From Acidimicrobiales bacterium (GTDB lineage Bacteria; Actinomycetota; Acidimicrobiia; Acidimicrobiales; CATQHL01), in assembly GCA_965209115.1 (NCBI GenBank), contig CBDBQD010000001.1, positions 843,154-907,153 of the forward strand: DNA of 64,000 nucleotides. The letters run 5' to 3'. The notes below the pieces were generated by a model. The model searched no databases and was not told where the DNA came from. It worked only from the letters and a program-made list of their open reading frames with translations. The translations under genes and the position numbers were made by a program. Positions within the stretch are counted from its first letter, which is position 1. Each line of letters opens with the position of its first letter. Positions 17,217 to 64,000 of the stretch are shown here, piece after piece.

Positions 17217-17292
<76 letters not shown>

Positions 17293-17299
17293 ACGAACT

Positions 17300-23495: not shown

Positions 23496-23662
23496 GGATC
23501 GAATCTACGCCGCCTGTGCTCCATTCATGTCAAACCGGTGTCAAACGAACCGAGCGAGACACGATGGACAGGCAGCTACGAGACCGGACGAGATCGCTGG
23601 TAACCCGTGCAGACTCTGGTTCACTCGGCTCGGCCGACAGCTACTCGGACGGACGTTTCTAA

Positions 23663-23706
23663 CTCATAACCCGAAGGTCGGAGGTTCAAATCCTCCCCCC
23701 GCCACT
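23663..23706 (+). repeat. attR-like direct repeat (orphan 3' half of tRNA-Met)
   Basis: Identical 44 nt to 17249-17292. The upstream sequence (ggacgtttctaa) is unrelated to the tRNA 5' half. Confidence 0.85.
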
Positions 23707-23827
23707 GAGAAATTCCAGGTCAGAGCGTTGCTCCGGCCTGGGATTCGCTGTTGTGGGTCAGACCGGGTGCAATCTGGGCTGCCGACAGGCTGCCGACACC
23801 GGTGCGGGGCGGGTTGGGGTTGACCTG

Positions 23828-24511
23828 TTACAGCAGGTCCGGAAGTTCGGGGCCTTGCACGACAGAGCGGACGATTGCTGGGTGGCGTTCGGTGAAGAAT
23901 CCGACGACGCGATCACGAACGTCCTCGCCGACCACGCCCTGGAGGATGGGGTCGTCGAGGACATCGTCGAAATAGCCGAATCCTGCGACGAGTGCGTGAA
24001 CCGAGCCGTGGTTGACGGAGAGCCCGTACTTCTGCAGGTACAGCGTGAATCCTTCCTCGACGCTGATCCCGGCAAGTTGTTCGAGTGACATGACGTCGAA
24101 GTAGTCGCGTAGCAGATGGCGGGAGCTGATGGCGCGGAACTTTGTCGCCATGATGTCCTGCAACGACCCGACGGGGAGGCCGGCGATAGGCGTGGGAGGC
24201 CGTAGTGTCGCCGCGTCGGCGCCCCAGAGAATGTCGATCTTGACGTCGTTGAAGGTGCCGTGGAGGTGTCCTTGGGACTTGCGGGCGAGGTGGAAGTCGC
24301 CCTGCGCGGCGAGCGCGGCGTGCAGCGGGTCCGGATCGAAGACGTGGGGGGTGAACAAGTCGAGGTCCTCGCTGCGGCGATGCCGCAGCTGCATCGCCAA
24401 GGCGGTCCCGCCCATCAGAACAGTCCCGGCGGGGACTATTTCTGCGACGGTGGGCCAGGCTGCGCGAGTTGCCGGCCCGAGGACCTCGGCGTACTCAGAC
24501 AGCGAGCCCAC
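23828..24511 (-). CDS. Nucleotidyltransferase AbiEii/AbiGii-family toxin
   Basis: 227 aa. LMGGTALAMQLRHRRSEDLDLF nucleotidyltransferase motif and DUF1814-like body. Confidence 0.8.
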   Translation of the reverse strand: MGSLSEYAEVLGPATRAAWPTVAEIVPAGTVLMGGTALAMQLRHRRSEDLDLFTPHVFDPDPLHAALAAQGDFHLARKSQGHLHGTFNDVKIDILWGADAATLRPPTPIAGLPVGSLQDIMATKFRAISSRHLLRDYFDVMSLEQLAGISVEEGFTLYLQKYGLSVNHGSVHALVAGFGYFDDVLDDPILQGVVGEDVRDRVVGFFTERHPAIVRSVVQGPELPDLL

Positions 24512-25091
24512 TGGGCTCTCCGAGCGCGTTCCGGATCATGGCCTTGACCGGCGCCGGGATGCCCTCCTTGTCGGCGACGCGATCGAGAGCCTCCGCCGGC
24601 AACGTCTCCAGCGCCCACGCCCACGCGTCGATGTCGTGGTAGGTGAGAAGGTGCTCGGCGACGAACGCCGCGTCGCGGGGCAGTTCGATCAGCGCCGGAT
24701 CGCCCCACCAGAACAGCTTCGCGAAACGCTCCGGCAACCGCTCCGGCATCGGCGCGGGCGGGAACTCGGGGAGCTCCACGGTTCGCGCCGCGTCAGCGAC
24801 GCTGAACCAGGCGTCCCCGGCGACCAGACGCCAGACGGCCCGGTCCGGCGCTGCGCCCGGTGGCACACCCGTCTCGGTGTCGGTTGTCACGAGCCCGCGA
24901 TCTTCAAGATCACCGAGCGCGGAGGCCACGTCGGTTGGCGCCAGGCCAGTGACGAACGCAACAGCGCTCACCCCTCGGAGGCCCCGAGGGCGGCGCGACA
25001 GGGCCGCCAGGACGCACATCTCGGCGGGCGACAGACAAGGCGCAGACCGCGCAGCGAGGCTGGCATCATCCGGCCGCGTCACGGTGGTCAC
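24495..25091 (-). CDS. AbiEi-like antitoxin / winged-helix regulator
   Basis: 198 aa, directly upstream of and overlapping the AbiEii gene by 17 nt. The N-terminal wHTH-like segment is LSPAEMCVLAALSRRP...DLEDRGLV. Confidence 0.6.
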   Translation of the reverse strand: MTTVTRPDDASLAARSAPCLSPAEMCVLAALSRRPRGLRGVSAVAFVTGLAPTDVASALGDLEDRGLVTTDTETGVPPGAAPDRAVWRLVAGDAWFSVADAARTVELPEFPPAPMPERLPERFAKLFWWGDPALIELPRDAAFVAEHLLTYHDIDAWAWALETLPAEALDRVADKEGIPAPVKAMIRNALGEPSGLAV

Positions 25092-25408
25092 AGCCCCAAT
25101 TCTACTGGCCGCATCGAGCCCGTCGTCCTGCCCCGGAGGCTCCCTGGGCGCCGCCTGAACCTCACTGGGTTGCGCCGCGGAATTTCCGGCGCTGCGCTCG
25201 GCGTGAGCGCGAACTAGATGATCAGCGGCAGTCGCGGATCGGGGTGTTCGCCCCGTCCCGAGGCGGCCCGGATGAAGGTGAGGTCGTCGCCGAGGTCGGC
25301 CGGTCGGCCGGCCACGGTCCTGCGAGCCAGGAGTTCGTCCAGGATCGCGGCGGTGACCGCAGTCCCCGCCGGCGTGGCGATGGGGTCCCGCGGTGCGTTG
25401 CGACGGTC

Positions 25409-48406: not shown

Positions 48407-48659
48407 CTGACGATGACGACTGCCGTTGGCTCGGCGCTCTCCCAGGCTCACCGCGGGCCGCGCCGGACTGGCGGTCGGATCGGGAGGCTCCCCATCTGGC
48501 CGGCGAGACCGCACACCGGATTCTCGGACCTCGTCGAAGCACAGGACTGCGGTGACGAACATCGCACTTCGGCAAAATCCCCCGTCGCGCAACACCATAC
48601 GTGTAATTTGGTCCTCGGGCTGCGCCCCGTTCGGCATCCACGGAGCGAAGGAGCGCGTT

Positions 48660-49910
48660 GTGTCGGGTCCCCGGCGAAAGGTTGGAACTGCTCTGGCCGC
48701 GATTGCGGCGGTCTCGGTGCTCCTGGGATCCGCCGCTCCGGCGCTCGGGCAGGACGGAAGCAGGCTGGAGCCGAACCGGCTGGTGGCGATAACGACTCCG
48801 GCCAACGCCGGTACCTACAAGGTGTCCTGGCGGGCATTGGGAGGCTGCGACCCCGGTCCGGGCACGTCGGGAATGGCAGGCGAGATCACGCTGACGGTAC
48901 GGGCCGACGGGAGTCCCGACGACGACCCGCAGCCCGGCGAACTCACGGGCACCCCGGCGACCGAGGTCGTGGTGGTGAACCCGCAGTGCGTCTACGAATG
49001 GACCGTCATGGCGATCGAGGCGACCACGAACGGGAACTGCATGGTCGGGCCCGTCCCGTTCGAACCCGACGACGACTTCAGGATCACCATCACCCTGGAC
49101 GACCCGGACACCGCCTGCAGCCGGCAGTCCCGGATCGTGGTCCGTCTGAGTCCTGCCGCTGGGGTCGACGGCGACGCCACCGACCACAACGCCATCCTGC
49201 GCGCCACCTTCAGCGCGACGGCCGTGCCCGCTGAGCGGTCCCCCAAGGGTTGCTCCTCCCGCCGCGCGTCCTCGAAGGTCGACGACCGTGACACGCCGAC
49301 GGAGACCGACGACATCGTCACGATCGAGTTGCCGGTGGTGGAAGTCACCGCGGCCGGCGGGACCTGCCGCTACGACGTGGCGCTCAGGCTGCCCGGCCAA
49401 TTCGTCGCCACCTTCGAGGGGCGGAGAATCCAAGTCTTGGAGGACGTCGCCGGCCTGGCCACGATCGACGTCCTGGTCGGCGTGGTGAGCAGGATGATCC
49501 TCCTGCTGCAGACCGTCGTCGGCGACTCCGGCGGCGCCAACGCGCACTACGCACTGTCGACGGAGTGCGGACCGCCGTCGCCGCTCCCCGAGACCATGTC
49601 GCAGGACCCCGAGAGCGGCATCTGGGAGGTCGCGGGCACCACGCTCGTCGAGTTGCGGGAGGGCCGCTTCAACATCACCGCCGCGCTCGCGGACGACCCC
49701 GCCGCCGAGGGCGCCTTCGACGGCGTCCCCGCCCGCGCGCTCGGCAGCAGCGGCGAGGACTGCCGCGCCACCGTCTCGCTCACCCGCCTGCCCCCGCAAT
49801 GCCTCGCGGAGGCCACCGACATCACCGTCGACCTAGCCACCGCCTCCGAACGCGTGATCTTCGAGTTCAGGATGACCTGCGGCGGCGCGGCGCACGGCTC
49901 GACCGGCTAG
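48660..49910 (+). CDS. Secreted hypothetical protein
   Basis: GTG 48660 (RBS gaaggag) gives VSGPRRKVGTALAAIAAVSVLLGSAAPALG|QD, a signal peptide. 416 aa, several Cys, no recognised family. The track ORF starts upstream at 48426. Confidence 0.5.
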   Translation: MSGPRRKVGTALAAIAAVSVLLGSAAPALGQDGSRLEPNRLVAITTPANAGTYKVSWRALGGCDPGPGTSGMAGEITLTVRADGSPDDDPQPGELTGTPATEVVVVNPQCVYEWTVMAIEATTNGNCMVGPVPFEPDDDFRITITLDDPDTACSRQSRIVVRLSPAAGVDGDATDHNAILRATFSATAVPAERSPKGCSSRRASSKVDDRDTPTETDDIVTIELPVVEVTAAGGTCRYDVALRLPGQFVATFEGRRIQVLEDVAGLATIDVLVGVVSRMILLLQTVVGDSGGANAHYALSTECGPPSPLPETMSQDPESGIWEVAGTTLVELREGRFNITAALADDPAAEGAFDGVPARALGSSGEDCRATVSLTRLPPQCLAEATDITVDLATASERVIFEFRMTCGGAAHGSTG

Positions 49911-51299: not shown

Positions 51300-52040
51300 T
51301 TACTGGGGCGTTTCGCCTTCGCGGTCGCCGAGTTGGGCGCGGAGCGCGGCCAACTCGGCCTCGGCGGCGCGGCGGGCGGTTTCGGCGGCGCGGCGGGCGT
51401 CTGCTTCGGCGCGGCGGGCGGTTTCGGCGGCGTCGCGTTGGCGGCGGGTTTCTTCGTGGTCGGGCAGCCAGAGGCCGGTGCGGGGGTCGCGGAGGCGCAG
51501 GCGGCCCGGCGCGGCGTGGAGTTCCAGGCCGAGGGCTTCGCTGTGGGCGCGGAGGCCGCTCCCTTCGGGGGTGGTGGGTATGGGCTCCCAGGCGCCGCCG
51601 GCGAGGCGGTCGGCTTGCAGCATCGGGGTGTAGAGGTCGCCGCCGGTGGGGTCGAGGCGCCAGTACTCGCCTGCGCCGATCTCCAGGTAGATCCCGGGCT
51701 TTTCGAGGAGGTCCCGGTCGCTGGTGCGCGCCGAGGCGATCTCCAGCACGAACGCCGGCGCGCCGGACTCCCACAGCCGGTAGCTGGCCGCCGGCTCGAG
51801 GGGGCCGGGGTCCACGCCGAAGCTCACGAACAGGTCCGGCGCCACGAACTCGGGGTCCGGGCGCGGGCGGTAGTAGAGGTTGCGGTCCGAGCACACGAAG
51901 CAGTCCCGGCGCGCCGCGAAGAAGTCGCCCAGCGCGATGAAGGCCTGCAGGCGGACCCGCGAGTGCAGCCCGGACTCGGCCATCTCAGGCGTCGTGGCGG
52001 GGTACGCCACGTCGGGATCCAGTTCGGCCAGCACGCTCAT
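51300..52040 (-). CDS. Uma2-family (DUF820) endonuclease with C-terminal heptad-repeat tail, copy A (246 aa)
   Basis: PDLFVSF...PAFVLEIASARTSDRDLLEKPGIYLEIGAGEYWRLDP is the Uma2 PD-(D/E)xK core. ATG 52040 is preceded by gagaggagg. Confidence 0.8.
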   Translation of the reverse strand: MSVLAELDPDVAYPATTPEMAESGLHSRVRLQAFIALGDFFAARRDCFVCSDRNLYYRPRPDPEFVAPDLFVSFGVDPGPLEPAASYRLWESGAPAFVLEIASARTSDRDLLEKPGIYLEIGAGEYWRLDPTGGDLYTPMLQADRLAGGAWEPIPTTPEGSGLRAHSEALGLELHAAPGRLRLRDPRTGLWLPDHEETRRQRDAAETARRAEADARRAAETARRAAEAELAALRAQLGDREGETPQ

Positions 52041-52380
52041 CGTCGCCTCCTCTCTCGCCGCGGCGGCGCGCCCCGGCACCACAGGCTACCCCGCCCGCCG
52101 GCAGCGCCGGCCCGGCCGAGATCGACGCGCCGCGGCGCCGCGCCCCGGCACCGCAGGCTGCCCCGCCCCCCGCCGCGCCGCGAACCCGACCGCTCACGAC
52201 ACGACATCATATCAGGTGATTGTTCGAAAACTCATGGAATGTCATTGCGGGTCGGGAGTCGGGCCGCGGCCGGGCCGGGATCCGGCCGCCCGGCCGGCAT
52301 CGGAGGCTTGATTCAGGACTCGTCGTCAACGGCCAGTGGGATCTGCCTGCCGACGAGGCGGCGGGCCGGTTCAGGAGGCG

Positions 52381-52767
52381 TCAGGCGGCCTCGACGTCGG
52401 TCAGGTCGAAGTCTCCACCTTTGAACAGCAGCGGCCGGCGCGTGGTCTCCGCGAGGGCGTATGCGAAGCAGTCGCCGAAGTTCAGTCCCGCCGGGTGGTT
52501 GCCCTTGCCGAATCTGCGCCACGCTCGCCGCGCGGCCTGCGCGTGTTCGGCTGTGACCGCCTCCAGTTCGATCCCCGCCTCGTGAATGAATGCGTCAAGT
52601 TCGTAACCGGCTGCGGGGCCGCTGCGACTCTCCAACACGATGCTCGCCTCCAAGAGGGAAGCCGCCGACATCCGCGGATTCGAGGCCCTGGCGATGGCGG
52701 TGGCGAAGTGCTCGGCATCGGGCTCGTGGAACAGGATTGCCAGGACCGCCGAGGTGTCAACGATCAC
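52381..52767 (-). CDS. vapC: PIN-domain ribonuclease toxin
   Basis: 128 aa. MIVDTSA..., the conserved acidic residues, and FGDCFAYALA. Confidence 0.85.
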   Translation of the reverse strand: MIVDTSAVLAILFHEPDAEHFATAIARASNPRMSAASLLEASIVLESRSGPAAGYELDAFIHEAGIELEAVTAEHAQAARRAWRRFGKGNHPAGLNFGDCFAYALAETTRRPLLFKGGDFDLTDVEAA

Positions 52768-53021
52768 CTGGGCAGCCCTCGGTCGTCGTACAGGAGATCG
52801 CCGTGCTCCGCCGCCGAGGGGCCGTCGCCCATCATGTCGGCGCAGCGTTCTCCTATGGCGAGAAGTCTCCGGACCGTTGCCTGCGCGCTGCGCTCGCTTC
52901 TCTCGCGTTGCAGGCGCTCCCTGAGGGCCACCGTGATGGCGCCGGTCATGGTGTCGCCGGTCAGCTGCGCCAACTCATCGGCGAGTTGGCAGGTCTCCTC
53001 GTTCTTGATGTTGATGCTCAC
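52764..53021 (-). CDS. vapB: VapB-type antitoxin
   Basis: 85 aa (MSINIKNEETCQLADELAQLTGDTMTGAITVALRERL...). 4-nt ATGA overlap with vapC. Confidence 0.75.
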   Translation of the reverse strand: MSINIKNEETCQLADELAQLTGDTMTGAITVALRERLQRERSERSAQATVRRLLAIGERCADMMGDGPSAAEHGDLLYDDRGLPR

Positions 53022-53531
53022 AGACCCCTCCCAGCACTGGTAGATGCTCTGTATATACGTCTACCATACTGCGTCGTGCCGCCTTCGCCGTCGTGCCGCC
53101 TTCGCCGTCGTGCCGCCTTCGCTAGGCAGTCTCACGGGCGGGTTCTCCGGCCTGCTTGCTCGCGGTCGGGTGGTCGATGCGGACGACGCGGAGGGCACCG
53201 ACGTCTCACGGGCGGGTTCTCCGGCCTGCTTGCTCGCGGTCACGCCTTTCGATCCCGCAGAGGGAACCTCACTGAATCCACCGATTAGGGTCGGTGGGGG
53301 TTGTCGGGCGGGTGGTTTCTTGGGGGGTCGGTGGACGTCTCGGGCCGGCGGGGCGGCTGTTTCGGCGGGTGCGGCGGCGCGCTGGGGTGTTGTGGCGGCG
53401 CGGTGGGCTGCTTGGGCGGTTTCGGGGCGCGTGGGGCCGGCGTTCGGCCGTCGGTGGGGCCGGCGGGGGGGTGATCGGGGGCTGATCCGCCCGAGGCGCG
53501 CGGTCGGTCCGGGGGTTCTCGCCGGTCGCTG

Positions 53532-54314
53532 TTACTGGGGCGTTTCGCCGTCGCGGTCGCCGAGCTGGGCGCGGAGCGCGGCCAACTCGGCTTCGGCGGC
53601 GTCGGCGCGGTCTTCGGCGGCGCGGCGGGCGGCGGCCTCGGCGCGGCGGGCGGCGGCCGCGGCGCGGCGGGCGTCTGCTTCGGCGCGGCGGGCGGTTTCG
53701 GCGGCGTCGCGTTGGCGGCGGGTTTCTTCGTGGTCGGGCAGCCACAGGCCGGTGCGGGGGTCGCGGAGGCGCAGGCGGCCCGGCGCGGCGTGGAGTTCCA
53801 GGCCGAGGGCTTCGCTGTGGGCGCGGAGGCCGCTCCCTTCGGGGGTGGTGGGTATGGGCTCCCAGGCGCCGCCGGCGAGGCGGTCGGCTTGCAGCATCGG
53901 GGTGTAGAGGTCGCCGCCGGTGGGGTCGAGGCGCCAGTACTCGCCTGCGCCGATCTCCAGGTAGATCCCGGGCTTTTCGAGGAGGTCCCGGTCGCTGGTG
54001 CGCGCCGAGGCGATCTCCAGCACGAACGCCGGCGCGCCGGACTCCCACAGCCGGTAGCTGGCCGCGGGCTCGAGGGGGCCGGGGTCCACGCCGAAGCTCA
54101 CGAACAGGTCCGGCGCCACGAACTCGGGGTCCGGGCGCGGGCGGTAGTAGAGGTTGCGGTCCGAGCACACGAAGCAGTCCCGGCGCGCCGCGAAGAAGTC
54201 GCCCAGCGCGATGAAGGCCTGCAGGCGGACCCGCGAGTGCAGCCCGGACTCGGCCATCTCAGGCGTCGTGGCGGGGTACGCCACGTCGGGATCCAGTTCG
54301 GCCAGCACGCTCAT
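53532..54314 (-). CDS. Uma2-family endonuclease, copy B (260 aa)
   Basis: Body identical to copy A as far as I can read. The tail is longer by 14 aa. Confidence 0.8.
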   Translation of the reverse strand: MSVLAELDPDVAYPATTPEMAESGLHSRVRLQAFIALGDFFAARRDCFVCSDRNLYYRPRPDPEFVAPDLFVSFGVDPGPLEPAASYRLWESGAPAFVLEIASARTSDRDLLEKPGIYLEIGAGEYWRLDPTGGDLYTPMLQADRLAGGAWEPIPTTPEGSGLRAHSEALGLELHAAPGRLRLRDPRTGLWLPDHEETRRQRDAAETARRAEADARRAAAAARRAEAAARRAAEDRADAAEAELAALRAQLGDRDGETPQ

Positions 54315-54825
54315 CGTCGCCTCCTCTCTCGCCTCTCTCGCCGCGGCGGCGCGCCCCGGCACCACAGGCTACCCCGCCCGCCGGCAGCGCCGGCCCGGCC
54401 GAGATCGACGCGCCGCGGCGCCGCGCCCCGGCACCGCAGGCTGCCCCGCCCCCCGCCGCGCCGCGAACCCGACCGCTCACGACACGACATCATATCAGGT
54501 GATTGTTCGAAAACTCATGGAATGTCATTGCGGGTCGGGAGTCGGGCCGCGGCCGGGCCGGGATCCGGCCGCCCCGCCGGCGCCGCAGGCGAGCCGGCCG
54601 TCCGCGCCGACTCGGGGTTCTTGAGCTACGACCTCCTCGGCCGCCTCGACGCCCAGTGGCGGCGCTCACCGCCGCAGCCCAGATCGCGGCGCCGGCCGCG
54701 CCTGCTCGGCCAGCGCCGGCGCGAGTCGTCCCAGGGCCGCATCGACGTGTTGCCTTGTTGTGTTCGGCGGTTCGGGCTTCATCGGGGCGGCGGGCGGTCG
54801 GTCCGGGGGTTCTCGCCGGTCGCTG

Positions 54826-55524
54826 TTACTGGGGCGTTTCGCCTTCGCGGTCGCCGAGCTGGGCGCGGAGCGCGGCCAACTCGGCCTCGGCGGCGCGGCG
54901 GGCGGTTTCGGCGGCGTCGCGTTGGCGGCGGGTTTCTTCGTGGTCGGGCAGCCACAGGCCGGTGCGGGGGTCGCGGAGGCGCAGGCGGCCCGGCGCGGCG
55001 TGGAGTTCCAGGCCGAGGGCTTCGCTGTGGGCGCGGAGGCCGCTCCCTTCGGGGGTGGTGGGGATGGGCGCCCAGGCGCCGCCGGCGAGGCGGTCGCCTT
55101 GCAGCATCGGGGTGTAGAGGTCGCCGCCGGTGGGGTCGAGGCGCCAGTACTCGCCTGCGCCGATCTCCAGGTAGATCCCGGGCTTTTCGAGGAGGTCCCG
55201 GTCGCTGGTGCGCGCCGAGGCGATCTCCAGCACGAACGCCGGCGCGCCGGACTCCCACAGCCGGTAGCTGGCCGCCGGCTCGAGGGGGCCGGGGTCCACG
55301 CCGAAGCTCACGAACAGGTCCGGCGCCACGAACTCGGGGTCCGGGCGCGGGCGGTAGTAGAGGTTGCGGTCCGAGCACACGAAGCAGTCCCGGCGCCCCG
55401 CGAAGAAGTCGCCCAGCGCGATGAAGGCCTGCAGGCGGACCCGCGAGTGCAGCCCGGACTCGGCCATCTCAGGCGTCGTGGCGGGGTACGCCACGTCGGG
55501 ATCCAGTTCGGCCAGCACGCTCAT
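54826..55524 (-). CDS. Uma2-family endonuclease, copy C (232 aa)
   Basis: Three substitutions seen relative to A and B (A->G in FFAGRRD, A->G in MLQGDR, E->A in GAWAPIP). The tail is shorter by 14 aa. The upstream region differs from A and B. Confidence 0.8.
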   Translation of the reverse strand: MSVLAELDPDVAYPATTPEMAESGLHSRVRLQAFIALGDFFAGRRDCFVCSDRNLYYRPRPDPEFVAPDLFVSFGVDPGPLEPAASYRLWESGAPAFVLEIASARTSDRDLLEKPGIYLEIGAGEYWRLDPTGGDLYTPMLQGDRLAGGAWAPIPTTPEGSGLRAHSEALGLELHAAPGRLRLRDPRTGLWLPDHEETRRQRDAAETARRAAEAELAALRAQLGDREGETPQ

Positions 55525-56041
55525 CGTCGCCTCCTCTCTCGCCTCTCTCGCCGCGGCGCCGCGCCCCGGCACCACAGGCTACCCCGCCCGCCGGCAGCGC
55601 CGGCCCGGTCGAGATCGACGCCCCGCGGCGCCGCGCCCCGGCACCGCAGGCTGCCCCGCCCCTCGCCGCGCCGCGAACCCGACCGCTCACGACACCATAT
55701 GATACTCTCTATATACGGGAAACGACACGAAACTTCGTTTCCTTGGCCCACGCGGCCACCATGCGCTGCGCTCGCGGCGACATGCGCCCGCGGATCACGG
55801 ATCCGTCCCTGATCGACACCTGGGCCTCTCCGCCGCTGTCTGCGACCCTGTCATGGGGCGTCCCGTCGCCGCGGGGCTTCGGGCGGTTACGGGCCGGCGG
55901 CCGGGGTGGCGTGGCTCGCGTCCTGTGCGGGTGGTATTGCTCTCGACCTCGTGAGTGCGGTATCGTGGGTGTGTAGCGATGCGCTCTCTCGGCCCGGTCG
56001 CGGGCCTTGGAGCGCGGCCCGAATTCTCAGGAGGTTCCGAG

Positions 56042-59000
56042 ATGGCCGAGCGCGGGGCATGCAGGTCGCTGTCGGGGCGGGTCGTCGGGCCGGCGGCGCG
56101 GAGTCCCCTCCCCCCCCTTACTTTGTTGGCGCGCCGGGCTGCGAGGCGTGGCGGGCTGTCGGGGCTCGCGCTGGTGCTGCTGGCGGCGACGCTGGTGGCG
56201 CTGCCCGCTGATCGGGCCGGCGCGCAGCAGACGCAGACCTTCGTCGCCAACACCGGCCAGAGTGGCCTTGCTGGGACACATTTGGAATATGATTTCGCCC
56301 AGGCGTTCACGACCGGCTCCAACAGCGGGGGCTACAGCCTGCGCAGCGTCGGCGTGGATTTCGCCACCATCGACAGCGCCTTCAGCTCTTCGTCCCTCAC
56401 CGCCAGGATCCACGCCGACTCCGGCGGGTCTCCGGGCAGCTCGCTGGGGACCCTGACCAACCCCGCCAGCTTTCCCGCCTCCAGCTCGGACCAGACGCTG
56501 ACCTTCACGAGCAGCGCGGGCATCGACCTTGAGGCGAACACCACGTACTTCGTGTTGATCGATCTAAGCAGTGCCGAGTCTACTTCGGTGATACGCCTAA
56601 CGGGTTCGGACGGCGAGGACAGCGGGGGCCAGGCCGGCTGGAGCATCGGCAACGGTTTCTCGAGACGAGCATGGAACACAACAGGCGCGTGGACCACCTT
56701 CACGTCATCACTGAAACTCAGCCTCGGCGGCGTCAGCAAGCCCTTCCTGGTGAGCAACTCCGGGCAGGCGAACGGCGGCACCGGCAACTTCGTGCAGCAC
56801 GACCACGCCCAGGCGTTCACGACGGGCGCCAACGCCGGCGGGTACACCCTGACGGGCGTCGACTTCTCGTTTCCGCAAATCAACGACGGCGGGCTGGCGG
56901 GGAAGCTGACTGCCGAGATCAGAAGCGACAGCAGCGGAGCGCCGGGCGCGGTGGTCGCCACCCTGACCAAGCCCGGCACGATCGCCGCCGGCACGAACAG
57001 CTTCACGCACTCGGGCGTGGCGCTCGCGGCGAACACCACGTACTGGGCGGTGCTGGACGTCACCCTGGTCCTGCAGCCCGGCGCCAACACCATCCAGAAC
57101 ACCGCGTCGGACGCCGAGGACGCCGGCGGCGCGGACGGCTGGACCATCGCCGACGATGGCCACTACCGGACCTGGAACACCTCGGGCGCCTGGACCTCCT
57201 TCAGCCAGTCCCGCAAGATGACCATCCACGGCACGGCCGTCGAGACCGTCGAGACGGAGACCTTCGTCGCCAACACCGGCCAGGCGGACGGAGGCACCTC
57301 GTTTCTGGGCAATGACTTCCACCAGGCCTTCACCACCGGCTCCAACAGCTTCGGCTACAGCCTGCACAGCGTCGACGTGGAGTTCTCCACCATCGACAGC
57401 GCCTTCAGTTCCTCGGCGCTGACCGCCAGCATCCACGCCGCCTCCGGCGGGTCTCCGGGCAGCTCGCTGGGGACCCTGACCAACCCCGCCAGCTTCCCCG
57501 CCTCCACCTCGGACCAGACGCTGACCTTCACCAGCAGCGCGGGCATCGACCTCGAGGGGAGCACCACCTACTTCCTCGTGATCGACATGGGCGCCGGCCA
57601 GGGTTCTTCGAGGGTACGCCTGACGGGTTCGGACGCCGAGGACGGCGGGGGCCTGGCCGGCTGGAGCATCGCCGACGGCGCTGGGACGAGAACGGCTTCC
57701 TCGACGGGCTCGTGGACCCCCAACGTATCGTCACTGAAGATCAGCCTCGACGGCGTCAGCAAGCCGGAGCCGCCGCGGGTGAGCATCCTTGGCGACGGCG
57801 CCGTCACCGAGGGCGTCAGCGCCAGCTTCACGCTGAGGGCGGTCCCGGCGCCCACGGCAGACCTGCCGGTGAGCGTGACGGTGACCACGACCGGCGACTT
57901 CGGCTTCGGCGCGCTGCCCACCAGCGTCACCATCCCGGCCTCGGGCACCGCGACGCTGGAGATCCCCACCACCAACGACGACGTGGACGAGGCCCACGGC
58001 TCGGTCACGGTGACGCTGGTGGACGGGTCGGACTACGACCTGGCCACGTCGCTGGGGACGGCGACGGTCCGGGTGCGCGACGACGACCCGGCGCTGGTGA
58101 AGAACACCGGTCAGTCGAGCGGCCTGGTGCAGGGCCTGCACGTGGACCTGGCGCAGGGTTTCGACACCGGCGGCAACCCCTCGGGGTACACCCTGACCAG
58201 CGTGGACGTGGCCTTCAGGCGGTCCACCGAGGACTTCGGTTCCAAGCTGACGGTCACCGTCCACAAAGGTGCCAACGGGGCGCCCGGCACGGTCGTGGGG
58301 ACCCTGGACAATCCCGCCTTCGTGAACCGGCAGGCCGGCACGTACAGCTTCACGCACCCGGGCGTCGCGCTCGAGGCGGACACCCGCTACTGGGTCGTGC
58401 TGGACGCAGCCGGACTCACGGAAGGAAACAGCCAGGTAAAATTCACGCAGAGCAACTCCGAGGACGAGGGCGCCGCGCCCGGCTGGAGCATCAACAACGA
58501 CGCTCGCATCCGCGCGCAGGGGGGCGGCAACTGGATCACCCTCGTCGGCGGCTCCACTCTGTCGATGGGAGTCAACGGCCGGCTGCTGCCCCACGCGGAC
58601 GGCTCCTACACCGTGCCCTTCGACTGGCCGCTGAAGCCGCTCGGTCTGGGCGCCGGCGAGACGTTCCGGCTGCTGTTCATGACCGAAGACCACCGCGACG
58701 CCACCGCCGCCGACATCGGCGTCTACGACGCCCACGTGCGGGAGGCCGCCCGCGACGGGCACGCCGACATCCGGCGCTACGCCGACCACTTCCGGGTGGT
58801 CGGCTCCACCGCCGCGGTGGACGCCCGCGACCACACCCGGACCAACCCCAACAACGCCGGGCACACGGACGCGGAGGTCTGGTGGCTGAACGGCGAGCGC
58901 GTCGCGGCGAACAACGCCGGCTTCTGGTCCGACACCTGGGAGAACTGGGCGATGGCGGACCGCCGCTTCGAGAGCGGCGAGAGGAGCACCTCGAACGACT

Positions 59001-62000
59001 GGCCGTGGACCGGCACCCGCACCGACGGTAGGAAGGAGGCGAACCCTCTGGGCGCCAGCAACGCCCGGCGCGGACGGTTCTCGACCACCGACGCGGACAC
59101 CGGCCCCATCAGCTACAACACCATCGCCAGCACCCAGGACCACGCGTTCTACGGCATCTCGCCCCTGTTCCGGGTCGAGCCCACGCCGGTGAACGCGCCG
59201 CCCGGTGAGCCGGCGGTGATGAGCAACCTCGGCCAGGCCGACGGCGCGGCGTTGACTGTGACGACTGCCGGTACCGTGCGTGACCGCGCGCAGTCGTTCA
59301 CGACGGGCAAGAACGGCGGCCACTACCGCCTCAACAGCGTCGACGTCGAGTTCGCCGAGATCGGCGACGCCGACGCCGCCCGTGATCTGAGGGTACAGAT
59401 CTGGGCCGGCTCCGGCGGCTCGCCGGGCAGTACCGCCGCCGACGTCCTCGCCGACCTGGCGCGCCCCTCCATGCCGGTGGGCAGCAGCGACCAGACCTTC
59501 ACCTTCACCTACCAGGGCGACGACGGTTCGGGGCTGCGGCTGGAGCCGAACACCACCTACTGGGTGTATGTGTACGACGCGTCCGTGCAGCCCAACAGCA
59601 CGTACACCCTTCGCGCCACCGCGTCGAACTCCGAGCGCCTGCAGGGCCTGCGCCTGCCCGAGGGCTGGAGCATCGGCGACGGCCACAGTTCCTGGTCGCT
59701 CTACCCCAACCCCGCCGTCTCCTGGAGCACCCACTCCGAGGCGCTCAAGATCGGCCTGAACCTGGGGGCCGCCGACGCCTTCGTGCAGTTCCGCACCTGC
59801 GCGGGCACGGTCTCGGGCAACGACTGCGACACCGGCTGGGTGGTCGCCAACTACAACAGGCACGACCCGCCGCCCACGATCACGCTGACCGAGGGCGGCC
59901 CGGCGGTGACCTACCAGTGGCAGGCGGTGGACCCCCACCAGCGCCGGCACTTCTACGTCGCCAGCCAGGTGGCTGAGCCGCTCAGCCACCACGGCGGCTA
60001 CATCGGGCCGGGCCAACCGGACCGCGACCGGCTGATGTGCCACACCGGGAGCCGCAGCCCCTACAACCTGGGCGACCCCATCGTCGACGGGCTTCGCCGG
60101 GACGGGATCAACTTCGGTTACGGCAGCACCGCCGGCCCGCTGCTGGACCGCCACGACGGCTGCCCCTTCTCGTCGCAGTCCGTCTACGAGGGCGACGCCA
60201 ACAAGTGGCGCCCGGTGAGCCTCGCCGCCGGCCAGGACAGCGACGCCTTCGACCACGGGACGTTCCTGATCCACCGGCCCCACGCCGTCGGCCACAACTT
60301 CTATGAGAATGGCGTGCTGTACCAGGTGAAAGGCTTCGACTACCCCGAGGTGCGGGTGCCGCTCATCATCCGCGACGACGACGAGTGGGAGCAGACCCTG
60401 GAGTTCTCCATCGACGACGGGACCACCTGGACGTCCATCGAGGACGGCGGGCTCAATCTGGCCTTCCCGGCCTCGCTGAACACGGGGCGCAAGGCGCACT
60501 ACTTCTGGGTGCGGACGAAGAACGACCCGCCGGCGGACCAGGACAAGCGCTTCTCCATCAGCGCCGACTTCGCCAAGCCGCTGTTGCGGAGCGGCACGTC
60601 GGAGTACTTCCGGTCCCACCGGGTCTGGTTCACCAGCCCCGCCGCCTCGCACCTGCACTCCTTCCGCGCTTACGACGGGCCCGCCGTCAGCGCCGGCTCG
60701 GTCACGGTCAGCCGCACGCCGATCCAGGTCGAGATCCACGTCGGCGCCAACGTGGTCGGCAACGTGACCTTCCAGGTCGAGGCCTACAAGCTGTACGAGC
60801 GCAGCGACAACCAGATCTCGACGGAGACGCCGCCGAAGACGGTGCGCACCGACAGCTTCAGCTTCCACCGCACGCTGGGCTCCTGCGTGGGCTGCCAGCG
60901 GCTGCTGGGCGAGCTGCCCGACCCGGTGGTGGAGCGCGTGGGCGACCTGAGCTACGCCAACCTCTCCGACACGGGCATCGACTTGAGCTGGCCGCGGGTG
61001 GTCGGCGCCGAGGGCTACGAGGTGCGCTACTGGTCCACCACGTCGCCCTTCCCCGGCGTCCCCGCCGACGAGGCCTGGTTCGGGGCCGAGCCCAACGACC
61101 CGGCCTCGAACATCCGCCACCTGGAGCCGGACACCGAGTACCGGGCGGTGGTCTACTACCAGGACCACGGCGCGACCCAGCTGAGCACCGCCAGCCCGGT
61201 GATTCGCTTCACCACGCTTGCGGCGGGCTCGCCCGTGCAGGCGGAGCCCACGTCGGTGATCGTGGAGCGGGTGCCGGAGGTGTCGATCAGCGCCGCCGCC
61301 GGGACCATCACCGAGGGCGAGGACGCGGTCTACACGGTCACCGTGGACCCCGCGCCCGACGCGCCGCTGGACGTCAGGGTGAGCGTGGTCGGCCCATCCG
61401 TGGTCGCCGCCCAGCACCTGGGCGAGCGCACGGTCAACGTGCCCACCGGCGGCAGCGCCACCTTCACCATCCCCACCGTCGACGACACCAGTTGGGGCTC
61501 CAACGGGATGCTCGGCGCGACGGTGCAGTTCGGCGAGGGCTACCGGCTGAACAAGTTCAAGAGCTACGCCAGCGTCTACGTCGCCAACAACGACCTGCCG
61601 CCGCCGCCGCCGGTCCAGCTCAAGCGCGTCTCCGACACGACGGCGACCGTCGCCTGGAAGCCGCAGGGGGACGGCGCGTCCTACCTGGTCGTCTGGCACG
61701 AGAGCTTCACGGGCATCCCGGTGTTGACGGAAGTCACGACCACCGCGACCGAGCACCAGCTCACCGGCCTGAAGCCCCGGTCGCAATACGTGGTCTCCGT
61801 CCTTCACGGGACGAACCAGCTGGACAAGATCACAGTGCGGACCCTCGCCGCCGGCGCGACGCCGAAGACCTTCACGGTGGACTTCGAGACGCCCGCGCCC
61901 AACACGTCCGTGCCGCTGATCAGCGTGACCGCCGACGGCAACGTGGCCGAGGGCGGGGACGCCACCTTCACGGTCAGCGCCGACCCGGCCCCGGCTGAGG

Positions 62001-64000
62001 ACCTGGACGTGAGCGTCACGGTGTCGCAGAGCGACGACTCCGGGATATCCATAGGACAGCAGACGGTGACCATCCCGACTGCGGGCTACGCCACGCTGAC
62101 GGTGGCCACCACCAACGACGAGGTGGACGAGGCCGACGGATCGGTCACGGTCACCATCGACGCCAGCGACAACCTCGACTACCGGGTGTCCTCGTCCCAG
62201 GGGACGGCCATCGTGGTCGTGTCCGACGACGACGGCGGCTACACCGTCAACCAGGGAACGATCGCCAGGGTCAAGGATCTGGCGTCGCAGACGCACAACG
62301 GCGCGGCCCACGTGAACCGCTGGAACCGGGTGCTGCTGGCCTTCGGCGAGCACGACGGCACCGGCGTCACCGGCGGCCCGATGACCGCCGCCGAGGCGCA
62401 GGACATGGCCGACCGCCACAGCAGCCCCGTCTGGGACCTCGTCGTCGCCGAGCTGACGGCCCTCGAAGCGGCGCAGAACGCCCCGCCGCCGCCCACGCCT
62501 GAGGTGAGCGTCACCGCGGGCAGCGGGGTGACCGAGGGCGGCGACGCCACCTTCACGGTGACGGCCAGCCCGGCCCCGGCTGCGGACCTGGACGTGAGCG
62601 TGACGGTGTCGCAGAGCGGCGACTTCGGCGCGACCACGGGCCAGCGGACGGTGACCATCCCGACCACGGGCAGCGTCACCCTCACCGTGGGCACCACGGA
62701 CGACAGTACGGACGAGACCGACGGCTCGGTCACCGCAACGGCGAACGCGGGCAGCGACTACACGGTGTCGTCCACCCAGGGGGCGGCCACGGTGTCGGTG
62801 TCGGACAACGACGACGCGCCCACGCCGGTGGTGAGCGTCACCGCCGCCGCAGGCGGCACCGAGGGCGACCCCGTGACCTTCACGCTGACGGCCAACCCGG
62901 CCCCGGCCGCGGATCTGGCGGTGAGCGTCACGGTCGCCACCACCGGCGACTTCGGGTACGGGACGCTGCCCGCCAGCGTCACCATCCCGGCGTCGGGCAG
63001 CGCCACGGTGACCATCGCCACCACCGACGACGACGTCGACGAGGCCGACGGATCGGTCACCCTCACCGTCGACGCGGCCAGCGGCTACACGGTCGGCGCG
63101 CCGTCCACGGAGACGGTGAGCGTCACCGACGACGACGAACAGGTCGAGGAGCAGACGGGCTACACGGTCGACCCGGACGTGGTCGCCAGCGTCCAGGCGC
63201 TGGCCGCGCAGACCCAGCACGGCACGGCCCACGTGAACCGCTGGAACCGGGTGCTCGTCGCCTTCGGCGAGCACGACGGGACCGGCGTCACGGGCGGCGC
63301 GATGACGGCGTCGGAGGCGCAGGACATGGCGGACCGCCACAGCAGCCCCGTCTGGGACCAGGTGGTGACCGAGCTGACGGCGCTGGAAGCGGCGTCAACG
63401 CAGACGCCGCCGCCGCCCACGCCTGAGGTGAGCATCACCGCGGGCAGCGGGGTGACCGAGGGCGGCGACGCCACCTTCACGGTGACGGCCAGCCCGGCCC
63501 CGGCGGCCAACCTGGCGGTGAGCGTCACGGTCACGCAGAGCGGCGACTACGGCGCCACCACGGGCCGGCGCACGGTGACGATCCCGGCCTCGGGCAGCGT
63601 CACCCTGACGGTGGGCACCACCGACGACCAGGCGGACGAGTCCGACGGCTCGGTCACGGCCACGGTGAACGCGGGCAGCGGCTACACCGTGGCCTCGTCG
63701 CAGGGCGCGGCCACGGTCAGCGTGGCCGACGACGACGACGCGCCGGTCGTGGTTCCGGTGGTGAGCATCACCGCCGGCGGGGGCGTCACCGAGGGCGGCA
63801 CGGCGACCTTCACGCTGAGCGCCGGCCCGGCGCCGGCGGCGGACCTCGCCGTCACGGTCACGATCGCGACGGAAGGCGACTACGGCGTCACGGCCGGTTC
63901 GCGCACGGTCACGATCCCGGCATCGGGCAGCGCCACGCTCACGATCGCCACGACCGGCGACCAGACCGACGAAGCCGACGGCTCGGTGACGGCGACGCTG
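56042..64000 (+). CDS. Giant secreted multi-repeat protein (surface/adhesin-like), 3' end beyond the window; NOT in the supplied ORF track
   Basis: The frame with codon starts congruent to 2 mod 3 is open from TGA 55952-55954 to nt 64000. ATG 56042 is preceded by AGGAGG (56029-56034). N-terminus MAERG...RRAARRGGLSGLALVLLAATLVALPADRAGA|QQ is a signal peptide. 2653 codons lie inside the window, with the recognisable domain repeats listed in the findings. Confidence 0.85.
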   Translation, partial: MAERGACRSLSGRVVGPAARSPLPPLTLLARRAARRGGLSGLALVLLAATLVALPADRAGAQQTQTFVANTGQSGLAGTHLEYDFAQAFTTGSNSGGYSLRSVGVDFATIDSAFSSSSLTARIHADSGGSPGSSLGTLTNPASFPASSSDQTLTFTSSAGIDLEANTTYFVLIDLSSAESTSVIRLTGSDGEDSGGQAGWSIGNGFSRRAWNTTGAWTTFTSSLKLSLGGVSKPFLVSNSGQANGGTGNFVQHDHAQAFTTGANAGGYTLTGVDFSFPQINDGGLAGKLTAEIRSDSSGAPGAVVATLTKPGTIAAGTNSFTHSGVALAANTTYWAVLDVTLVLQPGANTIQNTASDAEDAGGADGWTIADDGHYRTWNTSGAWTSFSQSRKMTIHGTAVETVETETFVANTGQADGGTSFLGNDFHQAFTTGSNSFGYSLHSVDVEFSTIDSAFSSSALTASIHAASGGSPGSSLGTLTNPASFPASTSDQTLTFTSSAGIDLEGSTTYFLVIDMGAGQGSSRVRLTGSDAEDGGGLAGWSIADGAGTRTASSTGSWTPNVSSLKISLDGVSKPEPPRVSILGDGAVTEGVSASFTLRAVPAPTADLPVSVTVTTTGDFGFGALPTSVTIPASGTATLEIPTTNDDVDEAHGSVTVTLVDGSDYDLATSLGTATVRVRDDDPALVKNTGQSSGLVQGLHVDLAQGFDTGGNPSGYTLTSVDVAFRRSTEDFGSKLTVTVHKGANGAPGTVVGTLDNPAFVNRQAGTYSFTHPGVALEADTRYWVVLDAAGLTEGNSQVKFTQSNSEDEGAAPGWSINNDARIRAQGGGNWITLVGGSTLSMGVNGRLLPHADGSYTVPFDWPLKPLGLGAGETFRLLFMTEDHRDATAADIGVYDAHVREAARDGHADIRRYADHFRVVGSTAAVDARDHTRTNPNNAGHTDAEVWWLNGERVAANNAGFWSDTWENWAMADRRFESGERSTSNDWPWTGTRTDGRKEANPLGASNARRGRFSTTDADTGPISYNTIASTQDHAFYGISPLFRVEPTPVNAPPGEPAVMSNLGQADGAALTVTTAGTVRDRAQSFTTGKNGGHYRLNSVDVEFAEIGDADAARDLRVQIWAGSGGSPGSTAADVLADLARPSMPVGSSDQTFTFTYQGDDGSGLRLEPNTTYWVYVYDASVQPNSTYTLRATASNSERLQGLRLPEGWSIGDGHSSWSLYPNPAVSWSTHSEALKIGLNLGAADAFVQFRTCAGTVSGNDCDTGWVVANYNRHDPPPTITLTEGGPAVTYQWQAVDPHQRRHFYVASQVAEPLSHHGGYIGPGQPDRDRLMCHTGSRSPYNLGDPIVDGLRRDGINFGYGSTAGPLLDRHDGCPFSSQSVYEGDANKWRPVSLAAGQDSDAFDHGTFLIHRPHAVGHNFYENGVLYQVKGFDYPEVRVPLIIRDDDEWEQTLEFSIDDGTTWTSIEDGGLNLAFPASLNTGRKAHYFWVRTKNDPPADQDKRFSISADFAKPLLRSGTSEYFRSHRVWFTSPAASHLHSFRAYDGPAVSAGSVTVSRTPIQVEIHVGANVVGNVTFQVEAYKLYERSDNQISTETPPKTVRTDSFSFHRTLGSCVGCQRLLGELPDPVVERVGDLSYANLSDTGIDLSWPRVVGAEGYEVRYWSTTSPFPGVPADEAWFGAEPNDPASNIRHLEPDTEYRAVVYYQDHGATQLSTASPVIRFTTLAAGSPVQAEPTSVIVERVPEVSISAAAGTITEGEDAVYTVTVDPAPDAPLDVRVSVVGPSVVAAQHLGERTVNVPTGGSATFTIPTVDDTSWGSNGMLGATVQFGEGYRLNKFKSYASVYVANNDLPPPPPVQLKRVSDTTATVAWKPQGDGASYLVVWHESFTGIPVLTEVTTTATEHQLTGLKPRSQYVVSVLHGTNQLDKITVRTLAAGATPKTFTVDFETPAPNTSVPLISVTADGNVAEGGDATFTVSADPAPAEDLDVSVTVSQSDDSGISIGQQTVTIPTAGYATLTVATTNDEVDEADGSVTVTIDASDNLDYRVSSSQGTAIVVVSDDDGGYTVNQGTIARVKDLASQTHNGAAHVNRWNRVLLAFGEHDGTGVTGGPMTAAEAQDMADRHSSPVWDLVVAELTALEAAQNAPPPPTPEVSVTAGSGVTEGGDATFTVTASPAPAADLDVSVTVSQSGDFGATTGQRTVTIPTTGSVTLTVGTTDDSTDETDGSVTATANAGSDYTVSSTQGAATVSVSDNDDAPTPVVSVTAAAGGTEGDPVTFTLTANPAPAADLAVSVTVATTGDFGYGTLPASVTIPASGSATVTIATTDDDVDEADGSVTLTVDAASGYTVGAPSTETVSVTDDDEQVEEQTGYTVDPDVVASVQALAAQTQHGTAHVNRWNRVLVAFGEHDGTGVTGGAMTASEAQDMADRHSSPVWDQVVTELTALEAASTQTPPPPTPEVSITAGSGVTEGGDATFTVTASPAPAANLAVSVTVTQSGDYGATTGRRTVTIPASGSVTLTVGTTDDQADESDGSVTATVNAGSGYTVASSQGAATVSVADDDDAPVVVPVVSITAGGGVTEGGTATFTLSAGPAPAADLAVTVTIATEGDYGVTAGSRTVTIPASGSATLTIATTGDQTDEADGSVTATL
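62233..64000 (+). repeat. ~921-bp intragenic super-repeat (helical module + two Calx-beta-like repeats), about 1.9 copies before the window ends
   Basis: The anchor cacgtgaaccgctggaaccgg occurs at 62309 and 63230. Long stretches after each anchor are near-identical (for example ...gcgggcagcggggtgaccgagggcggcgacgccaccttcacggtgacggccagcccggccccggc...). Confidence 0.85.

Follow-up and report, generated by a model that had tools for sequence, protein, structure and literature searches.

A giant gene predicted to encode an exported, anchorless and possibly host-binding protein, shared between bacterial phyla of sponge symbionts

Background

The Len proteins of Leptospira, which have been modelled as endostatin-like, bind laminin, fibronectin, and factor H; their family evolves by recombination, which yields mosaics and leaves the leader peptide and flanks of each locus in place (PMC2063517). 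In sponge-associated Actinobacteriota and Chloroflexota, genes with fibronectin type III (FN3) and cadherin domains are enriched and laterally transferred (Robbins et al. 2021, PMC8163846). The very long adhesins of the LapA, SiiE, and MpIBP type are substrates of type I secretion systems in Gram-negative bacteria; they carry RTX and secretion signals at the C-terminus and a retention module at the N-terminus. Here we describe, against the background of these systems, a giant gene that starts at position 56042 of a 64,000-nt stretch of an Acidimicrobiales genome (GenBank assembly GCA_965209115.1, contig CBDBQD010000001.1, positions 843,154 to 907,153; hereafter, the window) and runs past its last base.

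Our literature searches on the giant family, on Candidatus Poriferisodalis, and on bacterial endostatin-like domains returned only general papers on eukaryote-like proteins and lateral transfer in sponges together with the Leptospira Len work, and the literature searched held no experimental study of the giant family. We propose, with a probability of roughly 60%, that the window contains the 5' part of a genuine Acidimicrobiia gene for an exported protein without an anchor, which would act as a secreted multivalent binder of the host or its matrix, and whose family has recently spread, been amplified, and become mosaic.

Results

An intact gene cut by the window edge

Computational translation of the plus frame at 55955-64000 yields 2,682 sense codons after a TGA and zero stops through the last base; the five other frames of 56042-64000 contain 6-103 stops each. 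An earlier note, made from the sequence alone, had described this stop-free frame and attributed its absence from the accompanying list of open reading frames (ORFs) to the lack of a stop inside the window. Both statements stand, as the list leaves out ORFs that run past the edge of the source. From ATG 56042, the codon from which residues are numbered below, the window portion encodes 2,653 aa; the product is rich in Thr, Ala, Gly, Ser, Val, and Asp and highly repetitive. Two features frame the choice of start and strand:

56029-56034, + strand: Shine-Dalgarno-like AGGAGG, read from the sequence, 7 nt 5' of ATG 56042, as the earlier note had placed it
57731-63340, - strand: antisense shadow ORF, not a gene; GC1 0.96, GC3 0.64, Arg/Val/Gly-rich

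The GC content at the first, second, and third codon positions (GC1 to GC3) of the plus ORF is 0.62/0.55/0.95, a level that is held in every 1-kb block. The minus ORF (1869 aa) carries its GC maximum at the first position, and its product contains 15% Arg, 17% Val, and 17% Gly; it is therefore an antisense shadow and not a gene, in agreement with its first description as an Arg-rich shadow. Spurious ORFs of great length do arise in high-GC genomes, and the minus-strand ORF is very long too, so that the plus frame could in principle be a chance opening in GC-rich DNA, with the minus ORF, or nothing, as the real gene. We give this explanation next to no chance. Besides the GC3 of 0.95 on the plus strand against the GC1 of 0.96 on the minus strand, (i) curated domain models match the plus product only, (ii) a protein search returned 395 homologs of this product, and dN/dS per domain (NG86) is 0.18-0.93, i.e. 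below 1, and (iii) one of its modules, U1, was modelled at a predicted local distance difference test score (pLDDT) of 96. We conclude that the plus frame is a genuine gene, which shows no disruption over the part that the window covers and is cut by the window edge. The two conditions that the earlier note had named as refuting, an in-frame stop and codon-position GC in favour of the minus ORF, were both checked, and both results speak for the plus frame.

Relatives and the missing 3' end

About 60 protein clusters (P0001-P0060) of 2,870-3,150 aa are 82-94% identical to the product across the whole query. Where these relatives are named, the name is 'fibronectin type III domain-containing protein', and they come from Acidimicrobiaceae metagenome-assembled genomes (MAGs), e.g. 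MDE0496853.1. Given these near-identical, if uncharacterised, public sequences, the gene is no orphan. The argument that a protein of this size with several unassignable modules is the most novel object of the window thus needs qualification: with about 60 such clusters already present in public MAG data, size and unassigned modules by themselves are no mark of novelty. We judge more interesting those features that are invisible from a single window, namely near-identity across phyla, multi-copy amplification, mosaicism of domain cassettes, and linkage to Uma2 genes.

The full-length relatives run on past the window end with more Calx-beta-like repeats and either a terminal Calx-beta domain or a Cys-containing domain in its place. 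The 39 complete ORFs obtained from genome loci encode 2,469-3,438 aa, typically with five choice-of-anchor R domains, 8-14 Calx-beta-like repeats, and 2-3 copies of a short module, H; in 30 of them the C-terminus reads '...DDD'. As the relatives are longer, the window copy is probably short of ~250-800 residues; none of the 72 related genome loci matches it at 100%, so that the form of its 3' end is deduced from relatives. Judged by these sequences, the window probably holds the 5' ~85% of a gene of ~8.7-10 kb, which would encode a protein of ~2,900-3,400 aa and ~300 kDa.

Several relatives deviate from the common layout. P0061 (82% identical) has an extra FN3 domain and ankyrin repeats ahead of the terminal Calx-beta domain, and in P0081 the middle is swapped for a PPDK_N-like (PF01326) region and the tail is frameshifted. 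At the loci L004 and L018, DNA similarity extends across the whole gene, with a longest ORF of only 1,899-2,060 aa; these copies are probably pseudogenised or frameshifted.

Head modules

In scans of the whole protein against Pfam and NCBIfam, only two families pass, fn3 and choice-of-anchor R (CAR). The N-terminal part is dominated by the latter and by two modules that we call U1 and U2:

56228-56740, + strand: choice-of-anchor R domain 1 (CAR1), aa 63-233; NF041539 and alignment; the most variable domain among copies
56741-57241, + strand: choice-of-anchor R domain 2 (CAR2), aa 234-400; NF041539 and alignment
57254-57766, + strand: choice-of-anchor R domain 3 (CAR3), aa 405-575; NF041539 and alignment; two allelic classes
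58091-58582, + strand: choice-of-anchor R domain 4 (CAR4), aa 684-847; NF041539 and alignment
58583-59179, + strand: U1, predicted endostatin-like domain (C-type-lectin-like superfold), aa 848-1046; AlphaFold2 (AF2) and Foldseek
59204-59767, + strand: choice-of-anchor R domain 5 (CAR5), aa 1055-1242; NF041539 and alignment
59768-60916, + strand: U2, single-copy region with a Cys/His/Asp signature, aa 1243-1625; alignment; beta-rich

The NCBIfam model NF041539 matches the product in five stretches with 425.1 bits and E 1e-128 (cut-off 30 bits), and the best stretch covers profile positions 8-154 of 155. The five domains, each of ~165-185 aa, bear out the borders drawn in the earlier note for its modules D1-D5. 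A profile of the CAR domains gave nothing significant against PDB sequences. Searched as single modules against Pfam and NCBIfam, U1, U2, and H returned nothing even at E<=10, so the statement that several modules are unassignable applies to the sequence libraries; for U1, which had been listed as unassigned, structure provides an assignment.

From an alignment of 34 sequences with 33-85% identity, AF2 modelled U1 with a pLDDT of 95.9 and a predicted template modelling score (pTM) of 0.92. The only significant PDB matches found by Foldseek are five endostatins, four of collagen XVIII (1dy1, 1koe, 1bnl, and 1dy0) and one of collagen XV (1dy2), with E values of 3e-5 to 6e-4, probability 1.00, template modelling (TM) scores of 0.53-0.67, and 10-14% identity over ~190 aligned columns. 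C-type lectin domains rank after the endostatins, with non-significant scores. Since all significant matches are endostatins, U1 is predicted from its model to be an endostatin-like member of the C-type-lectin-like superfold. At the sequence level, the U1 profile has no match among PDB sequences at E<=10, and at E<=1 none of its 34 members matches a relevant Pfam family. When 1.84 billion representative proteins were searched with the profile, U1 turned up in 6,390 clusters (50% identity level), of which 1,823 had E<=1e-30; up to 14 copies occur per protein, in proteins of up to 7,601 aa, and the family is without a Pfam or NCBIfam model. Ten sampled U1-domain proteins (from the P0144-P0291 set) are unnamed metagenome entries of ENA. 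Hypervariation of the lectin-like U1 by a diversity-generating retroelement was considered and ruled out, since few parts of the protein are as conserved as U1 (87-99% identity across copies).

U2 occurs once per protein, in 137 of the 215 proteins scanned and in all 137 scanned proteins of the family. Its residues C11, C91, H129, C132, D157, D159, D162/H163, H169, and C373/C376 are invariant even at 38-40% identity, and the AF2 model is beta-rich, with a pLDDT of 54.8 and a Cys/His insert of ~75 residues left unmodelled. Such a single-copy region with invariant Cys, His, and Asp and an insert that resisted modelling might be taken for the business end of the protein, an enzymatic or toxic activity (e.g. 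a protease, a transglutaminase-like, or a glycan-modifying enzyme) for which the rest would serve as a delivery scaffold and the repeats would give reach. We consider this explanation unlikely. U2 has no Pfam, NCBIfam, or PDB sequence match and no fold match to any enzyme, and Foldseek of the poor model returned generic tandem-immunoglobulin noise. Where the model is confident, it looks like a beta-sandwich, and U2 ends in a motif, 'IIRDDD', that resembles the Calx-beta-like repeats. The paired Cys could form disulfides or a metal site that stabilises an extracellular domain.

Stalk modules

The C-terminal part of the window product, together with one repeat inserted in the head, consists of three types of modules:

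57767-58090, + strand: Calx-beta-like repeat 1; repeat alignment
60917-61222, + strand: FN3 domain a; Pfam fn3; weak PDB FN3 matches at aa 1673-1732
61247-61597, + strand: Calx-beta-like repeat 2 (divergent); repeat alignment
61598-61849, + strand: FN3 domain b; Pfam fn3, E 3e-13; PDB matches to FN3 domains of tenascin and collagen XX
61889-62233, + strand: Calx-beta-like repeat 3; repeat alignment
62234-62479, + strand: H1, module of ~82 aa with an invariant 'W-x-R-V-L' core, aa 2065-2146; alignment
62489-63139, + strand: Calx-beta-like repeats 4 and 5; repeat alignment
63149-63406, + strand: H2, second copy of H, aa 2370-2455; alignment
63419-64000, + strand: Calx-beta-like repeats 6 and 7 (7 cut by the window end); repeat alignment

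The Pfam fn3 model (PF00041) matches two stretches with 50.1 bits and E 3.3e-13 (gathering threshold 25 bits), the best being aa 1854-1921; this is the FN3 pair that the earlier note had recognised, and these domains give the only PDB sequence matches of the product. The seven repeats of ~105 aa share the motifs TEG..., ...DD..DE.DG..., and ...DDD. These repeats resemble Calx-beta only remotely. Pfam Calx-beta (PF03160) never matches them, either in the whole protein at E<=0.01 or as single repeats at E<=10, and the profile of the repeats finds no Calx-beta structure in PDB. The terminal domain of the full-length relatives is a bona fide Calx-beta domain (six of six by Pfam, E 1.9e-11), and hhalign aligns the window repeats with it at full length but weakly (94 columns, E 6.4e-4, probability 27.8%). 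As this alignment is weak, 'Calx-beta-like' is used here as a description and not as an assignment to that family. The LapA domain (PF20579) reaches at best 23.9 bits on the repeats, below its cut-off of 27.

The alternation of one H module with two repeats, described earlier as a super-repeat, is seen by alignment; the helical character ascribed to H is inferred only, and the H modules match nothing in Pfam or PDB. Divergent H modules sit between Calx-beta-like repeats in many other giant proteins. In three of these (P0094, P0097, and P0117) they alternate with Calx-beta-like repeats, and the protein ends in an autotransporter-like beta-barrel; thus the super-repeat is used in Gram-negative bacteria too.

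Predicted export without a recognisable anchor

56042-56227, + strand: start codon and putative signal peptide, aa 1-62; Arg-rich n-region, h-region at aa 37-56, 'AGA|QQ' directly before the first domain

The leader has the layout of a Sec signal peptide, i.e. an Arg-rich segment (aa 1-36), a hydrophobic segment (aa 37-56; Kyte-Doolittle hydropathy up to 2.5) without a second strongly hydrophobic stretch anywhere in the 2,653 aa, and the small-x-small motif AGA|QQ. The signal peptide, which is called from hydropathy, is thus placed with the same end as in the earlier note. Pairs of Arg are present in the leader, with no fit to S/T-R-R-x-F-L-K. The relatives have other leaders, with just 33-50% identity to that of the window copy, yet the same A-x-A/Q junction before 'TFVxNxGQ'.

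The 'choice-of-anchor' name refers to C-terminal signals for sorting or anchoring, of which proteins of this type carry one out of several alternatives. None of the 39 complete relatives has a recognisable C-terminal anchor of the kind that this name would lead one to expect: neither LPXTG nor a C-terminal hydrophobic segment was found in any of them, nor was the sortase-type combination of LPXTG, hydrophobic segment, and charged tail; the C-terminus of the window copy itself lies beyond the window. The product is predicted to be a Sec-type exported protein without a recognisable anchor.

Mosaicism of the copies

The window copy was compared, domain by domain, with 26 other copies. A core comprising CAR2, U1, CAR5, U2, both FN3 domains, Calx-beta-like repeats 1-3, and H1 is 87-99% identical in every copy and phylum, with the single deviation that CAR2 falls to 44% in one copy. 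The identities of the other CAR domains are distributed in discrete classes: 88, 81, 72-74, 63-66, and 43% for CAR1, 94-98% or 70-76% for CAR3, and 88-99% or 44% for CAR4. Single head domains are thus replaced in the manner of cassettes, on a scaffold that stays conserved.

Sharing between phyla and amplification

The chromosomal genes of the window include purL, purD, gcvT, and genes for an aldehyde dehydrogenase, an amidase, a P450, and LIV transporters, and the named relatives of PurD are all from Acidimicrobiia/Acidimicrobiales (best 93%). The window belongs to an Acidimicrobiia chromosome. The 72 related loci come from MAGs labelled Dehalococcoidia/Chloroflexota, Acidimicrobiales, and Cyanobacteria and from Candidatus Poriferisodalis and Candidatus Poriferisocius. 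At the locus of the closest relative (L073), an ordinary flank gene has named relatives only in Chloroflexi/Chloroflexota. Three of the MAG names can be traced to a sponge host in the supplement of Robbins et al. 2021 (PMC8163846): RHO1_bin_20 (Rhopaloeides odorabile, Dehalococcoidia), CAR3_bin_5 (Carteriospongia foliascens, Synechococcus_B), and SB0661_bin_4 (Ircinia ramosa, Acidimicrobiia).

Over ~7.8 kb, the gene body (8 kb) is 88-94% identical at the nucleotide level to more than 25 loci, with 92-94% for the Chloroflexota copies. The non-repetitive segment U1-CAR5-U2 is 95-97% identical, with zero indels, to 32 Chloroflexota copies and ~94% identical to two Acidimicrobiales copies, with which the window copy groups. 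By NG86, dN is 0.03-0.07 and dS 0.08-0.12 against the Chloroflexota copies, and dS is 0.18 against L020, the positional relative in Acidimicrobiales. The 56 kb upstream of the gene have no match in those loci except for a gcvT-like fragment, 79.5% nucleotide-identical to an Acidimicrobiales chromosome; apart from this fragment, the flanks resemble none of the loci fetched. The shared segment begins just past the n-region of the leader and stops at about the stop codon. Exchange is thus confined to the part coding for the mature protein, whereas promoter, leader, and flanks stay locus-specific.

In 16 Chloroflexota loci, GC3 is 0.93-0.95 for the gene versus 0.69-0.85 for the flanking ORFs. The corresponding values are 0.949 versus 0.875-0.95 in the window and 0.90-0.91 versus 0.88-0.94 in the Acidimicrobiales loci L020 and L046. 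By composition, the gene thus fits a high-GC Acidimicrobiales background such as that of the window and stands out as foreign in Chloroflexota. Lateral transfer is indicated by the combination of high identity (93% at the nucleotide level, dS ~0.08), unrelated flanks, and the GC3 anomaly in Chloroflexota. Genomes carry 3-6 copies each as lower bounds. For the most part, paralogs from the same genome group together, a sign of duplication or gene conversion in place; the copies of one genome are spread over three clades. By these comparisons, the family has recently moved between sponge-symbiont phyla and has been amplified to several copies per genome. A mobile element was considered as the vehicle and rejected: no shared terminal sequences, integrase, or transposase border the shared segment, and the transposases near the L073 copy are unconserved across loci.

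Near-identity between phyla would also arise if metagenome assembly or binning had mis-joined the gene of one lineage to the contigs of others. Every match above 90% identity comes from MAGs, repeats are a classic source of misassembly, and eight copies lie at contig ends (L001, L003, L016, L017, L039, L040, L043, and L044). An artefact is nevertheless very unlikely. With differences of 3-10% and varying numbers of repeats among them, the copies do not represent one collapsed sequence; many of them are situated deep within contigs or chromosomes of 1.6-4.4 Mb with unique flanks on both sides, and the flank genes have lineage-appropriate relatives and GC3. The clustering of paralogs by genome argues in the same direction, and more distant members are present in independent short-read MAGs of three phyla.

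Proposed function

Under the reading that we favor, the protein would combine two parts with different tasks. The head would consist of the five choice-of-anchor R beta-domains, the endostatin-like U1, and the Cys/His-rich U2, and the stalk of FN3 domains, Calx-beta-like repeats, and short H modules, with a repeat number that differs among copies. The protein would be secreted into the sponge mesohyl or remain loosely cell-associated. There, as a long and multivalent molecule, it would bind to the host's extracellular matrix, to ligands on the surface of host cells, or to other cells. The head would determine specificity, and swaps of CAR domains between paralogs would diversify it. The role of a binder is inferred from (i) the arrangement of a binding head on a repetitive stalk, (ii) the endostatin-like domain, for which the Leptospira Len proteins offer a bacterial precedent, (iii) the report that Actinobacteriota and Chloroflexota living with sponges are enriched in FN3 and cadherin genes and that such genes are laterally transferred there (PMC8163846), and (iv) the gain of ankyrin repeats by a close relative.

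The same features have also to be weighed against another role, that of a part of the symbiont's own envelope or biofilm, such as an S-layer-like coat, a fibre for cohesion between bacteria, or a protective sheath, with paralog diversity serving evasion of phages or predators. An anchorless, very long, and repetitive product of this Thr/Ala/Gly/Ser/Val/Asp-rich composition would fit such a role, as would multiple copies whose head domains are variable and surface-exposed; attachment between bacteria is one possible use of FN3 and FN-binding genes (Robbins et al., PMC8163846), and defence genes lie nearby in the window. However, Pfam and NCBIfam scans of the product gave neither an S-layer homology (SLH) module nor one for binding to the cell wall, there are precedents for an endostatin-like fold that binds host matrix, and the ankyrin repeats of the close relative are a hallmark of host interaction. 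We regard an envelope or biofilm role as possible but rather unlikely.

Several points weigh against the proposal of a host- or matrix-binder. It is drawn from domain types that are mostly uncharacterised, choice-of-anchor R being without a known ligand, and U1 is only 10-14% identical to endostatin. An anchorless product could be a free component of matrix or biofilm and not an adhesin of the producing cell. The invariant Cys, His, and Asp of U2 could mark an enzymatic or toxin-like activity, which would alter the picture. The leader contains twin arginines and was judged by hydropathy alone, and the 3' end of the window copy lies beyond the window. The disrupted copies (L004, L018, and the tail of P0081) show that not all copies are under selection, and for the long-read MAGs a sponge origin is presumed.

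Uma2 genes and other neighbours

51300-55575, - strand: three tandem genes of the Uma2 family (putative PD-(D/E)XK-like nucleases), directly upstream of and divergent from the giant gene; Pfam PF05685, E ~1e-14

The cores of this trio are 99-100% identical, and the tails are Ala/Arg-rich coiled coils. An Uma2 homolog is found upstream of the giant gene in 23 of the 35 full-length loci, at only 38-45% identity; over the 72 loci, 24 Uma2 matches fall in 340 kb of upstream flank versus 0 in 584 kb of downstream flank. The recurrent Uma2 genes occur in both orientations, mostly less than 600 nt from the giant gene. At L073, the Uma2 gene (8947-9744) has the same arrangement as in the window.

It is conceivable that the giant gene and the upstream Uma2 gene form a functional unit, in which nuclease-stimulated (homing- or gene-conversion-like) recombination would drive both the exchange of CAR cassettes and the spread across phyla into pre-existing loci, with resident promoters and leaders kept. 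We consider this mechanism improbable, though worth stating. If true, it would be a previously undescribed way to diversify and spread host-interaction proteins in an animal microbiome, and a functional linkage would give a role to an abundant nuclease family without a function.

From the last Uma2 gene to the giant gene, the spacer has 70-74% GC except for an AT-rich island, catatgatactctctatatacgggaaacgacacgaaacttcgtttcc, at 55690-55745. The other two Uma2 copies are likewise preceded by the 259-nt repeat to which the island belongs. The island may be a promoter region; a consensus scan for promoters and terminators upstream of the giant gene gave no sites.

About 0.5 kb downstream of the giant gene, an ORF for a hydrophobic protein of 177 aa with multiple transmembrane-like segments (L073:19980-20513) is common to 14-20 loci. 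Its GC3 of 0.93 is like that of the giant gene and unlike that of the other neighbours, and it has no Pfam match. Judged by position and composition, it may be co-transferred as a partner of the giant gene; the equivalent position in our stretch is beyond the window edge.

Elsewhere in the window, a tRNA-Met (17217-17291) is followed by a stretch of lower GC (0.63-0.66; the whole at 17217-25217) with two genes:

20760-22898: N6-adenine methylase/Eco57I-like gene, 712 aa, in the lower-GC stretch
23828-24511, - strand: AbiEii toxin gene, in the lower-GC stretch

The region 17217-25217 looks like a small defence island beside a tRNA gene. Between the LIV transporter operon and the gene for S-adenosylhomocysteine hydrolase, a 494-aa ORF (48426-49910, + strand) has a signal-peptide-like N-terminus and no Pfam match. 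A 775-aa protein (14729-17056, - strand) matches Beta_propel (PF09826) over its full length with E 6e-132 and is probably exported too.

Comparison with known systems

As a giant, repetitive, adhesin-like protein, or as a sponge-symbiont protein with adhesion domains, the product is of a known kind. Its nearest counterpart is the sponge-symbiont family named for its FN3 domain, which has the same architecture, the same length class (2,870-3,440 aa), and 82-94% identity over the window part; the window copy differs from it in having its own leader, flanks, and combination of CAR cassettes. Sponge-symbiont proteins with FN3, cadherin, and ankyrin domains (Robbins et al. 2021, PMC8163846) share with it the niche, the host phyla, the FN3 domains, and lateral transfer. 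That study is based on domain counts, and the giant family, its endostatin-like and choice-of-anchor R content, the dS of ~0.08, the mosaicism, and the Uma2 linkage are not described there. Sponge microbiomes serve as a model for unrelated bacteria converging on life inside an animal; with a concrete gene of ~9 kb shared between Actinomycetota and Chloroflexota at such a dS, molecules of attachment and recognition, and their spread, become testable.

The adhesins of the LapA, SiiE, and MpIBP type resemble the product in their very long stalks of tandem beta-sandwich domains with ligand-binding modules, a likeness that includes the sub-threshold LapA match. Unlike them, the product has an N-terminal signal peptide, the complete relatives show no RTX or C-terminal signal (no RTX family is among the precomputed Pfam matches of the full-length relatives), and the hosts are Actinomycetota and Chloroflexota.

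LenA-F of Leptospira (PMC2063517) are likewise exported, with a predicted endostatin-like fold and recombination-diversified paralogs that keep the resident leader and flanks. They are, however, lipoproteins of 24-50 kDa with one or two Len motifs from a spirochaete pathogen, whereas the present product, a multidomain protein of ~300 kDa, contains just one endostatin-like domain; no sequence relation of U1 to Len was detected (34 U1 members, no Pfam family at E<=1). Metazoan endostatin, the C-terminal NC1 module of collagens XVIII and XV, shares the predicted fold of U1 over the ~190 columns aligned by Foldseek (probability 1.00, TM 0.53-0.67) and differs from it in sequence (10-14% identity, no match at the profile level in PDB) and in context, which for U1 is bacterial and non-collagenous. 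Nothing suggests that U1 was recently captured from a host. Its family of ~6,400 clusters is nevertheless structurally related, by the model, to an animal basement-membrane module with known matrix binding.

Compared with all these systems, five aspects are new: (i) the architecture of five choice-of-anchor R domains, an endostatin-like domain, U2, and super-repeats of H and Calx-beta-like modules, (ii) the structural assignment of U1, a large domain family without a model, (iii) the very recent sharing of a ~9-kb gene across phyla, with amplification, (iv) the cassette mosaicism, and (v) the recurrent Uma2 neighbour.

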